Below are positions 23,494 through 25,247 of a stretch of DNA of 34,186 bases, one piece after another; position 1 is the first letter of the stretch, and each line of letters opens with the position of its first letter. Location: assembly GCA_003321845.1 (NCBI GenBank), contig GCA_003321845.1_3917.1. One strand, written 5' to 3'. Both the position numbers and the translations under genes were made by a program. Source of the DNA: Escherichia coli. Lineage in GTDB: Bacteria; Pseudomonadota; Gammaproteobacteria; Enterobacterales; Enterobacteriaceae. Below the pieces are notes generated by a model. That model had not been told where the DNA came from and ran no database searches. It was given only the letters and a program-made list of their open reading frames with translations.

Positions 23494-23865
23494 ATGAAGG
23501 CTAAGAGTGCAAAAGACTTTTACTGCTTCCTACAATCCTACATCAATTCTGTGAAAAAGGGTGAGAGGTATAATCTTAGCGATGTTATCCCAACACCTTT
23601 GACATGGAGACTAAGTAAATGGCCTGAAGAAGATATCACACCAACGAGTGAACAACCTACCTACAACCCTGAAATGCACATTCCAGATTCTGAAAATCTA
23701 TTATATCCAATGTTTCATATTGTTGGTCTTGGTAGATTTCTTATGGATATCCAATATGTGATTGGTAAGGGTTATGAGATTAAAGGCATTGTTGTCGGCG
23801 ATGTATCTTCACATCATAAAGGTTATTTTAGATTAAACGCACATTTAGAGGCTAAAAAGAAATGA
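23494..23865 (+). CDS. Hypothetical protein; paralog of the N-terminal domain of the downstream Ig-repeat protein
   Basis: 123 aa; shares a colinear motif series with residues 1-120 of the next ORF (KxGxRY, WPExDI, FxMDxQYxI). ATGA overlap with the next gene. Confidence 0.6.
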   Translation: MKAKSAKDFYCFLQSYINSVKKGERYNLSDVIPTPLTWRLSKWPEEDITPTSEQPTYNPEMHIPDSENLLYPMFHIVGLGRFLMDIQYVIGKGYEIKGIVVGDVSSHHKGYFRLNAHLEAKKK

Positions 23866-25247
23866 TTAAAGCAAAGACTTACCCAGACTTCAAAGAGTTT
23901 GTGAAGGGCTTCATTGCAAACGTAAAGGCTGGTAAGAGATATGATTTTAGAACATATCAAGAAGCTATTTTACCACTAACCTATAGCTCATATTGGCCTG
24001 AAGCTGATATCGCAGAAGTTGAGAAGTTTGACTACAAACCAGACTATAAAGTTCCTTTTAGTGATGATTTGCTTTACAGCGTCGGTGCTCAAATGAGAAC
24101 TTCTGACTTCTTCATGGATTTACAATATGCAATTATCAATGGTAAAGATGTTGATACAGTGTATTGTGAATGGTTGGCAAGAGTTAAGCCGTTCTCAATG
24201 TTGAATGCTAAGCTGAAGGATGCAATTAAGCCACCAGCAATTACTCAGCAACCAACAAACCAAACAGTTAATGAGGGTGGTACACTCACTCTAAGCGTTC
24301 TCGCAAATAACGCCACTGGATATCAGTGGAAGAAGGATGGTGAGGACATCTCCAGTGCCACTTCTGCAACCTACACAAAACAATCTGTAGTACCTGCCGA
24401 TGCTGGTTCATATACTTGTGTTGTATCTGGAGAGGCTGGGACAAGTGTTACTTCAGACGCAGCAACAGTTACCGTTAACGCATTACCTGTTATTACCAAG
24501 CAACCTTCTAGCCAGACCATCAATGAGGGTGGAAGCATTAGCTTGGAAGTGACTGCAACAGGTGCAACAGGTTACCAATGGAAGAAGGATGGCTCTGACA
24601 TTCCTTCAGCTACAGAAGCTACTTATAGCAAGTCTGGCGCACTGCCAGCAGATGCAGGCTCATACACTTGCGTTGTAACTGGTGCAGGTGGTTCTGTTAC
24701 TTCTAGCCCTGCGACTGTTGTAGTAAACGCTCTACCAGTGATTACCAAGCAGCCAACCAACCAAACAGTCAATGAGGGTAGTAGTTTGACGCTGAGCGTT
24801 GAGGCTACAGGTGCAACAGGTTACCAATGGAAGAAAGACAATGTGAACATCCCTAGCGCAACTGGTGCAACTTACACGAAAGCTAAAGCAGCCCCTGCTG
24901 ACGCTGGTGCATATACCTGTGTAGTTACTGGTGCAGGTGGTACAACAGTCACGTCTAATGCTGCAACAGTTACTGTTAAAGCACTTCCGGTAATCACTCA
25001 ACAGCCAACCAATCAGGAAATCACTGAAGGTGAGACATTAACACTTAACGTTGTAGCAACAGGTGCAACAGGTTATCAGTGGAAGAAGGGTGAGGAAAAC
25101 ATCCCAGATGCAACGACTGCAACTTACACCAAAGAAGGTGCAACCACTACTGATGCAGGAAGCTACACTTGCGTTGTAACTGGTGCAGGTGGCTCTGTAA
25201 CATCTAATGCGGCAACAGTTACAGTTAACCCAGCAGGAGGGGAATAA
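23862..25247 (+). CDS. Ig-like repeat protein (N-terminal unknown domain plus four tandem Ig-like domains)
   Basis: 461 aa; four ~87-aa repeats of consensus LPVITKQPTNQTVNEGGSLTLSV.ATGATGYQWKKDG..I..AT.ATYTK....ADAGSYTCVVTGAGGSVTS.AATVTVN, an Ig-like signature. Confidence 0.75.
   Translation: MIKAKTYPDFKEFVKGFIANVKAGKRYDFRTYQEAILPLTYSSYWPEADIAEVEKFDYKPDYKVPFSDDLLYSVGAQMRTSDFFMDLQYAIINGKDVDTVYCEWLARVKPFSMLNAKLKDAIKPPAITQQPTNQTVNEGGTLTLSVLANNATGYQWKKDGEDISSATSATYTKQSVVPADAGSYTCVVSGEAGTSVTSDAATVTVNALPVITKQPSSQTINEGGSISLEVTATGATGYQWKKDGSDIPSATEATYSKSGALPADAGSYTCVVTGAGGSVTSSPATVVVNALPVITKQPTNQTVNEGSSLTLSVEATGATGYQWKKDNVNIPSATGATYTKAKAAPADAGAYTCVVTGAGGTTVTSNAATVTVKALPVITQQPTNQEITEGETLTLNVVATGATGYQWKKGEENIPDATTATYTKEGATTTDAGSYTCVVTGAGGSVTSNAATVTVNPAGGE
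24240..25240 (+). repeat. Four tandem ~261-nt coding repeats (Ig-like domains)
   Basis: Near-identical nucleotide blocks, e.g. acaggtgcaacaggttaccaatggaagaag, recur at ~260-nt spacing inside the CDS. Confidence 0.7.

Follow-up and report, generated by a model that had tools for sequence, protein, structure and literature searches.

The DNA considered here is a stretch of 34,186 nucleotides (contig GCA_003321845.1_3917.1 of the Escherichia coli assembly GCA_003321845.1), referred to throughout as the window. Its source is a Felixounavirus: it matches 252 phage records, nearly all of them from Felixounavirus and its relatives, with Escherichia phage LNA1 (96.6%) as the top match. Two adjoining open reading frames (ORFs) on its plus strand, encoding proteins of 123 and 461 amino acids (aa), are followed directly by a lysozyme gene. 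The longer protein, judged by its sequence, is the hexamer-centre decoration protein of Felixounavirus (called Hex-Dec in phage Bas63 and gp20 in phage Sf14), in which a capsid-binding domain (CapBD) is joined to four immunoglobulin-like (Ig) domains; the shorter is an old tandem duplicate of the CapBD alone. This tandem, Ig-less paralog of a capsid anchor is conserved and apparently undescribed in the literature.

The decoration protein and its tandem paralog

In a phmmer search of Protein Data Bank (PDB) sequences, the 461-aa protein aligned over its full length with 9NCF chain S (the Bas63 'Immunoglobulin-like domain protein', 460 aa; E=1.5e-273) and also matched 9C2D/9C3A chain S (Sf14 gp20; E=2.7e-163). 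Identity to Bas63 Hex-Dec is about 93% overall and reaches 121 of 122 residues in the CapBD (V74I). Arg79 and Arg107 are both present in the window protein and invariant across the Hex-Dec family, and Asp221 is present in the major capsid protein (MCP) of the window.

Because the 461-aa protein is orthologous to proteins of solved structure, its mechanism is taken as established. In the structures published in February 2025 (Sf14, PMC11821841) and November 2025 (Bas63, PMC12609058), the N-terminal 118 aa of the decoration protein fold into the CapBD, a T=9 head has one monomer at the centre of each of 60 facet-edge hexamers (peripentonal, quasi-3-fold), and the Ig-like domains are flexible and unresolved. 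No density was reported on the other hexamers of Bas63 (PMC12609058), and the distribution of Sf14 gp20 is the same (PMC11821841). In Sf14, Arg79 and Arg107 are salt-bridged to MCP Asp221, and shifted positions of Asp221 are offered as the reason why the 3-fold hexamers are unbound (PMC11821841). Mass spectrometry (MS) has detected the orthologs in virions of Felix O1 (gp36, 44% coverage; PMC3185647) and of Sf14 (gp20; PMC11821841). By extension, the protein encoded in the window would be expected on capsid hexamers and in virions: its N-terminal 118-122 residues would seat in the centre of each of 60 facet-edge MCP hexamers, anchored by salt bridges from Arg79 and Arg107 to Asp221, and its Ig-like domains would project outward as a flexible fibre, perhaps serving weak adhesion or environmental sensing, as suggested by T4 Hoc. 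The authors of the Bas63 structure pointed out that Hex-Dec is wrongly given a 'tail protein' annotation in the majority of genomes (PMC12609058); the same label is carried by PHROG 3995 and by many GenBank records matching the window. It can now be corrected on those genomes, and likewise on the UniRef entries for the small paralog.

Pfam models for Ig_3 (E=1.8e-43), Ig_2 and I-set each matched four stretches of the long protein. Identity to the first repeat is 67-72% in the second to fourth, the DNA period is 249-252 nt, and Tandem Repeats Finder reported no array in the Ig region, the DNA copies being too diverged. Among 28 related loci, Hex-Dec measures 210/211, 293-298, 372/377 or 461 aa, in size classes that step by about 83-84 aa and correspond to one to four Ig domains. 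Bas63 was the only four-Ig case among the species of the International Committee on Taxonomy of Viruses analysed with its structure (PMC12609058); beyond it, 461-aa alleles with four Ig domains are found in the window and in at least two IMG/VR contigs (L007 and L011). The long protein of the window is a new four-Ig allele of an already known decoration protein, with differences from Bas63 Hex-Dec in Ig3 and in parts of Ig2. In Shigella phage Z31, the Hex-Dec gene is annotated as two fragments of 134 aa and 55 aa (L003:2498-3070), and this phage may have neither the small paralog nor a decoration protein of full length.

The 123-aa protein aligns colinearly by BLASTP with residues 2-119 of the 461-aa protein (42 of 121 positions identical, 35%; E=6e-17), far above chance, and reciprocal PHROG cross-matches link the two (E=3.7e-16 and 2e-15). 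When it was compared with PDB sequences by phmmer, the only significant matches were 9C2D_S and 9NCF_S, the orthologs of the long protein (E about 1e-11). AF2 modelled the small protein with low confidence (pLDDT 56); Foldseek, run with that model, again returned 9c2d_S and 9ncf_S as the only significant PDB matches (TM 0.57-0.59). The ORF ends at residue 123 with no attached Ig array, and the protein had no match in Pfam, NCBIfam or PADLOC, nor in defence, anti-defence or other libraries. The small gene arose by an old tandem duplication and holds nothing but the capsid-binding domain. Several proposals of the initial annotation are upheld by these results, namely that the two ORFs share a colinear N-terminal region, that the domain was duplicated with one copy carrying four Ig-like domains, and that the Ig array is a Hoc-like feature of the virion surface, its orthologs having been solved on capsids (9NCF, 9C2D) and found in virions by MS. 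The shared domain, which had been called unknown, is instead the structurally solved capsid-binding domain of these same entries.

Gene order, boundaries and the adjoining lysozyme

Morphogenesis genes occupy the minus strand over 1-16.8 kb of the window, and a plus-strand cluster containing both paralogs begins at about 22.4 kb (Table 1). The Hex-Dec gene, as a consequence of this layout, is separated from the MCP gene by about 14 kb and 22 tRNA genes. Its displacement from the structural module had been flagged at the outset as unusual; the distance is real, but the arrangement is a known one, already remarked for Felix O1 gene 36 (PMC3185647) and seen in Bas63, where the Hex-Dec gene lies more than 10 kb beyond the structural module (PMC12609058).

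Table 1. Positions in the window of the two paralogous genes, their domains, and flanking features
Feature	Position	Strand	Remarks
MCP gene (target of Hex-Dec binding)	8612..9715	−	Translation matches the Felix O1 MCP sequence in PMC3185647; residue 221 is D
Block of 22 tRNA genes	15857-20201	−	Between the structural module and the divergently transcribed plus-strand cluster
196-aa gene (phrog_4034, Felix O1 ORF38), upstream neighbour	22855-23445	+	Conserved
Terminator-like hairpin, AGGGGGTTATTACCCCTT and T-rich tail	23454..23471	+	Ends the 196-aa gene; 5' cassette boundary; found by scan and sequence
TATTTATAAG motif	23476..23485	+	Just 5' of the small paralog; overlaps the AAGGA ribosome-binding site (23483-23487)
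Small Ig-less paralog of the Hex-Dec capsid-binding domain, 123 aa	23494..23865	+	PHROG 4463, 'unknown function'
Hex-Dec, 461 aa	23862-25247	+	CapBD and four Ig-like domains
CapBD of Hex-Dec, residues 1-122	23862..24227	+	Contains Arg79 and Arg107; V74I is the sole difference from the Bas63 CapBD
Four tandem Ig-like (I-set/Ig_3) domains	24231-24482, 24483-24734, 24735-24986, 24987-25244 (total 24231..25244)	+	
Endolysin (GH24 phage lysozyme)	25247..25711	+	Final cassette gene; ortholog of Felix O1 ORF35
Strong intrinsic-terminator-like hairpin, AGGCTCC TTCG GGAGCCT and TTTTTTATTTT	25721..25738	+	Ends the cassette

The small paralog, Hex-Dec and the lysozyme are packed between the two terminator-like hairpins (23454-23471 and 25721-25738). 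At the position homologous to the upstream hairpin, a terminator is predicted in Felix O1 (complement(20419..20445)), and Bas63, REP9 and Z31 have a hairpin there too, but one whose stem differs in sequence. Two plus-strand copies of the decamer TATTTATAAG are present in the window (22349-22358 and 23476-23485), where 0.13 would be expected by chance; the first precedes the plus-strand cluster, in the divergent intergenic region. The motif is kept in Bas63, REP9 and Z31, and could be a candidate promoter element of Felix O1-like phages. Upstream of the cassette, the 196-aa gene had no match in Pfam, NCBIfam or PADLOC; purifying selection on it is strong, with a ratio of non-synonymous to synonymous substitution rates (dN/dS) of 0.09, and it is syntenic across all genera examined, including a divergent metagenomic contig (L032) described below.

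The small-paralog and Hex-Dec genes overlap by ATGA in almost every locus (by 8 bp in SUSP1/2 and 1 bp in L032), and through this overlap they are predicted to be translationally coupled. Reverse-transcription PCR in Felix O1 placed the peaks of both ORF36 (Hex-Dec) and ORF37 (the small paralog) at 60 min, a class that also comprises ORFs 51, 53, 63, 64, 72, 73, 76 and 77 and includes portal, sheath and fibre genes, and placed those of ORF35 (lysin) and ORF38 at 25 min. The small-paralog gene of Sf14 (Sf14_gp021) has a tRNA adaptation index of 0.883, among the highest of that genome. Expression of the small paralog is late, at least in Felix O1, as well as coupled and probably efficient.

The gene adjoining the long ORF, as first described, encodes a lysozyme, and an ordinary one: a 154-aa GH24 endolysin matching PF00959 over residues 13-143 (E=1.1e-40, 139 bits against a cut-off of 22.3) and phrog_7 (endolysin). 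Its ATG shares one base with the Hex-Dec stop codon (TAATG), and the last Hex-Dec codons contain its AGGAGG ribosome-binding site. The initial annotation had seen in this proximity a cell-wall-targeting or adsorption module functionally coupled to the lysozyme. Such a module would fit the tight packing of three genes between two terminator-like hairpins, the overlap of the lysozyme start with the Hex-Dec stop, the conservation of gene order across genera, and the ability of Ig-like arrays such as Hoc to adhere to bacterial surfaces (papers cited in PMC12609058). It is difficult to reconcile with the seating of Hex-Dec orthologs on the capsid, not the tail or baseplate, through the very domain that the pair share; with the ordinary nature of the endolysin; with peak expression in Felix O1 at 25 min for the lysin and 60 min for the pair; and with the Hex-Dec and lysin genes of Sf14 and SUSP1, which do not overlap at all. 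A cell-wall or adsorption role, largely refuted already by the capsid structures, is in our estimate very improbable. Functional coupling of the pair to the lysozyme was rejected, as no feature supporting it was found, and the adjacency is a matter of operon or gene packing.

The small paralog across Felix O1-like phages

Orthologs of the small paralog include Felix O1 ORF37, Sf14 gp21, Bas63 bas63_0125, SUSP1 agp126 and VpaE1 ORF40c, and the gene is kept in about 93% of Felix O1-like genomes. It is an intact ORF, free of internal stops, in 28 of 28 loci, with a dN/dS (pairwise NG86, as for all such values here) of 0.13, compared with 0.045 for the CapBD, 0.14 for Ig1, 0.08 for the lysozyme and the value given above for the 196-aa gene; it evolves about three times faster than the CapBD. 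The possibility that it is a decaying relic was ruled out by this dN/dS and by the intact ORFs in the 28 loci. An indexed search of 5.8 billion proteins recovered a family of 51 members, all of 88-124 aa and at least 66% identical, and a profile search of 1.84 billion representatives recovered only 12 proteins, among them a few distant proteins of CapBD+Big_2 or CapBD+I-set type, each single-copy in its short contig. The small-paralog family is confined to phages with Hex-Dec.

The divergent 87-kb metagenomic contig L032 encodes, in the same order, a 195-aa protein, a 122-aa paralog, a 298-aa Hex-Dec and a lysozyme. Between this contig and phages of the window type, the small orthologs are 43% identical and the CapBD orthologs 58%, whereas cross-family pairs are 29-35% identical, which implies that the duplication is older than the divergence of L032. 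No tandem paralog was found in the short contigs that carry five distant CapBD homologs (P0099-P0103), so that the duplication looks lineage-specific. In these very distant relatives (P0099-P0103; L034-L036), the CapBD is fused to Big_2-like or I-set Ig domains or, in P0103, to a Lys/Ser-rich tail; their occurrence on short metagenomic contigs indicates that the anchor domain is also used outside Ounavirinae. A further record, GenBank GU169904.1 ('Staphylococcus phage SA1', 147 kb), contains a Felix O1-type small paralog (143190-143558; 91% identical) together with Hex-Dec; the assembly is probably chimeric or contaminated.

An alignment of 24 distinct small paralogs with 25 distinct CapBDs distinguishes what the two families share from what sets them apart. 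Conserved and identical in both are 35 positions, mostly aromatic, aliphatic, Gly or Pro, which plausibly form the core of the fold; another 39 are conserved inside each family yet differ between them. Neither anchoring arginine is conserved across the 24 small paralogs, R79 aligning to an invariant G78 and R107 to a variable H/Q/R position, and the small family has conserved basic residues of its own, namely K92, H108, K109 (shared with the CapBD) and R113. Where the small family aligns to the R79 contact region, its conservation equals that of Hex-Dec, but the residues differ. As read from these alignments, the binding surface of the small paralog has diverged from that of the Hex-Dec CapBD. 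Divergence between the window and Bas63 (L039, 1263-1996) is itself uneven, with a dS of 0.71 and 81% amino acid identity in the small paralog and values of 0.25 and 99% in the adjacent CapBD; this sharp mosaic boundary (window 23494-24227) suggests recombination near the junction of the two.

Data on virions give little sign of the small protein. Felix O1 gp37 is outside the list of 17 proteins obtained by whole-phage shotgun analysis, which does hold gp23 (9.7 kDa), gp55 (11.7), gp69 (13.3) and gp57 (13.7) (PMC3185647). Bas63 (MZ501086, found by tblastn) carries an intact small paralog, bas63_0125, 81% identical to that of the window, yet the absence of reported density on its other hexamers, mentioned above, applies to this same phage. 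The virion proteins modelled for Bas63 and for Sf14 do not include the small paralog (PMC12609058, PMC11821841), and Sf14 gp21 is outside the virion table of the Sf14 structure paper (PMC11821841), whose supplements contain no MS table and use 'gp21' for an SPP1 protein. Neither structure paper (PMC11821841, PMC12609058) mentions the small paralog or uses the words 'paralog' or 'duplication', and in September 2025 the Sf14 laboratory still listed gp21 as 'Hypothetical'. The initial view of both members of the pair as virion or adsorption proteins does not look right for the small one, which is missing from the Felix O1 list and has no counterpart in density on the other Bas63 hexamers.

The small paralog is also dispensable. 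In a transcriptome-wide CRISPRi-ART screen of SUSP1, agp126 (the small paralog, fitness −0.91) and agp125 (Hex-Dec, fitness −0.39) were both scored 'Not Fit'; the HIDEN-SEQ preprint covers no Felixounavirus. A single ancestral decay of the gene, marked by frameshifts, a start codon changed from ATG to ATA and the loss of about 224 bp from within the gene, is common to 19 GenBank records representing 18 distinct phages from E. coli, Shigella or Salmonella hosts (REP5-12, Tf, FGS030, fBSPA4, fKMPT1, mio, EcF-vB, Z31, CECAV_041, P54 and SP116). One of them, REP9, retains an intact 293-aa Hex-Dec beside the remnant (L004:2306-2497), which shows that Hex-Dec is not strictly dependent on the small protein. 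Members of this clade (REP5-12, mio, SP116 and others) provide natural knockout strains for comparison.

Possible roles of the small paralog and known counterparts

We infer that the small protein is functional and is not a stoichiometric component of the virion. Tentatively, and as the single role that we hold likeliest, it may be an accessory, non-virion or bound only transiently, whose target is the MCP hexamer centres or the loading of Hex-Dec. It would do so in late head assembly, and could serve as a placeholder or specificity factor. This role is favoured because its gene is coupled to that of Hex-Dec in a conserved manner and co-expressed with it late, because the segment corresponding to the contact region is constrained yet unlike that of Hex-Dec, and because the protein is absent from readable data on purified virions. 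The complete explanation that we prefer, in which the long protein is Hex-Dec, the small paralog is such a non-virion or transient capsid accessory, and the lysozyme is adjacent through packing, is on balance probable.

Several considerations weigh against the proposed role, which is in itself inferential. The loss of the anchoring arginines could equally mean that the small protein makes no contact with the capsid, and its AF2 model (pLDDT 56) is too poor to be used for mapping conserved sites. Non-detection is weak evidence, the Felix O1 list having required at least 25% coverage (PMC3185647); purification in caesium chloride could strip a weakly bound small protein, and icosahedral averaging would smear a monomer on a 3-fold axis. 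As to dispensability, the SUSP1 endolysin (AVU07_agp124) was also scored 'Not Fit' (0.82, p=0.14), from which it follows that the CRISPRi-ART screen has false negatives. That endolysin result may be one of these, or may hint at redundant lysis functions; in Felix O1, no holin gene adjoins the lysin.

The same observations can be read in favour of other roles. The small paralog might itself decorate the head, either as a plug without Ig domains, adapted to the 20 three-fold hexamers, or by occupying hexamer centres sub-stoichiometrically or in a labile manner. Exclusion of gp20 from the 3-fold hexamers of Sf14 was blamed on a shift of Asp221 relative to R79 and R107, and these are exactly the residues that the paralog has changed (PMC11821841); it has conserved basic residues of its own (K92, H108, K109 and R113), a segment at the R79 region as conserved as that of Hex-Dec but composed of different residues, and expression that is late, coupled and probably efficient. 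We nevertheless regard such decoration as unlikely, given that no density was reported on the other hexamers of Bas63 and that Sf14 gp20 has the same distribution, that gp37 was not among the 17 virion proteins of Felix O1 when smaller ones were, and that the gene has been lost in a sub-clade that persists. Slightly less credit is given to a role as partner or chaperone of Hex-Dec, in which the small protein would pair with the CapBD in the cytoplasm, for instance as a mimic of one of its pseudo-C2 lobes, keep Hex-Dec soluble or off unexpanded procapsids, and be released upon capsid binding. ATGA coupling favours roughly equimolar, co-localised synthesis, both genes are late in Felix O1, the CapBD is described as having pseudo-C2 lobes (PMC12609058), and the small protein is outside the Felix O1 virion list; the 18 isolates without a small paralog, REP9 with its intact 293-aa Hex-Dec among them, speak against it, as does an evolutionary rate about three times that of the supposed partner surface, and nothing was found that points to dimerisation of the CapBD.

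A new role apart from the capsid, directed for instance at a host or competitor target, with adjacency to Hex-Dec a matter of history, would accommodate the loss of both arginines, the 39 family-specific positions, evolution faster than that of the CapBD, and again the absence from the Felix O1 list. It is at odds with conserved coupling to Hex-Dec and late co-expression with it, with a family found only in phages that have Hex-Dec, and with the lack of any match in defence, anti-defence or other libraries, and we judge it improbable. Returning to an action on the capsid, a bolder and doubtful proposal is that the Ig-less paralog helps to determine which 60 of the 80 hexamers receive Hex-Dec; it would bind an alternative hexamer state (the 20 three-fold hexamers or those of the unexpanded procapsid) through its retooled contact surface. 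The paralog would then be a class- or stage-specific plug, lost from purified, icosahedrally averaged particles or invisible in them.

The puzzle posed by the small paralog is that a late, coupled copy of a capsid anchor has been retained despite the loss of both anchoring arginines. Should it contact hexamer centres, it would bear on how decoration is chosen among the quasi-equivalent hexamers of T=9 capsids, and would be relevant to the use of Hex-Dec as a display scaffold on therapeutic Felixounaviruses.

Among characterized systems, that of Bas63 is closest, its Hex-Dec having the same four Ig domains and the same neighbours (small paralog upstream, endolysin downstream) as that of the window; Sf14 gp20 has three Ig domains where the window protein has four. 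The Ig domain of T5 pb10 is detectably similar to the window protein (5lxk_A, E=4e-12), but pb10 has only one such domain, binds the capsid through an unrelated one and is not known to have a tandem Ig-less paralog. Pairs of short and long phage structural proteins, without and with an Ig-like extension, reportedly arise by programmed frameshifting (Fraser et al. 2006), and gpG/gpGT of lambda is a short and long pair produced by frameshifting. The logic is shared, in that adjacent and coupled coding sequence yields one product with and one without an Ig-like or extended C-terminus; the difference is that here two separate genes are involved, whose products are 35% identical, and that the short form lacks the anchoring residues and is outside the Felix O1 virion list. 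T4 Hoc offers the nearest functional parallel, likewise placing a monomer at each hexamer centre by means of a small capsid-binding domain from which a string of Ig-like domains extends outward, and likewise being dispensable in the laboratory; we know of no stand-alone paralog of the Hoc anchor domain in T4. Its capsid-binding domain is C-terminal where that of Hex-Dec is N-terminal. The CapBD of Hex-Dec exceeds it in size, differs from it in topology, is pseudo-C2 symmetric and resembles Hoc only minimally in sequence (PMC12609058), and Hex-Dec is found on no more than 60 of the 80 hexamers. The PHROG 'Hoc-like' matches of the 461-aa protein fall within the Ig region (best stretches inside residues 286-458). 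The protein functions like Hoc and is not a member of the Hoc family.

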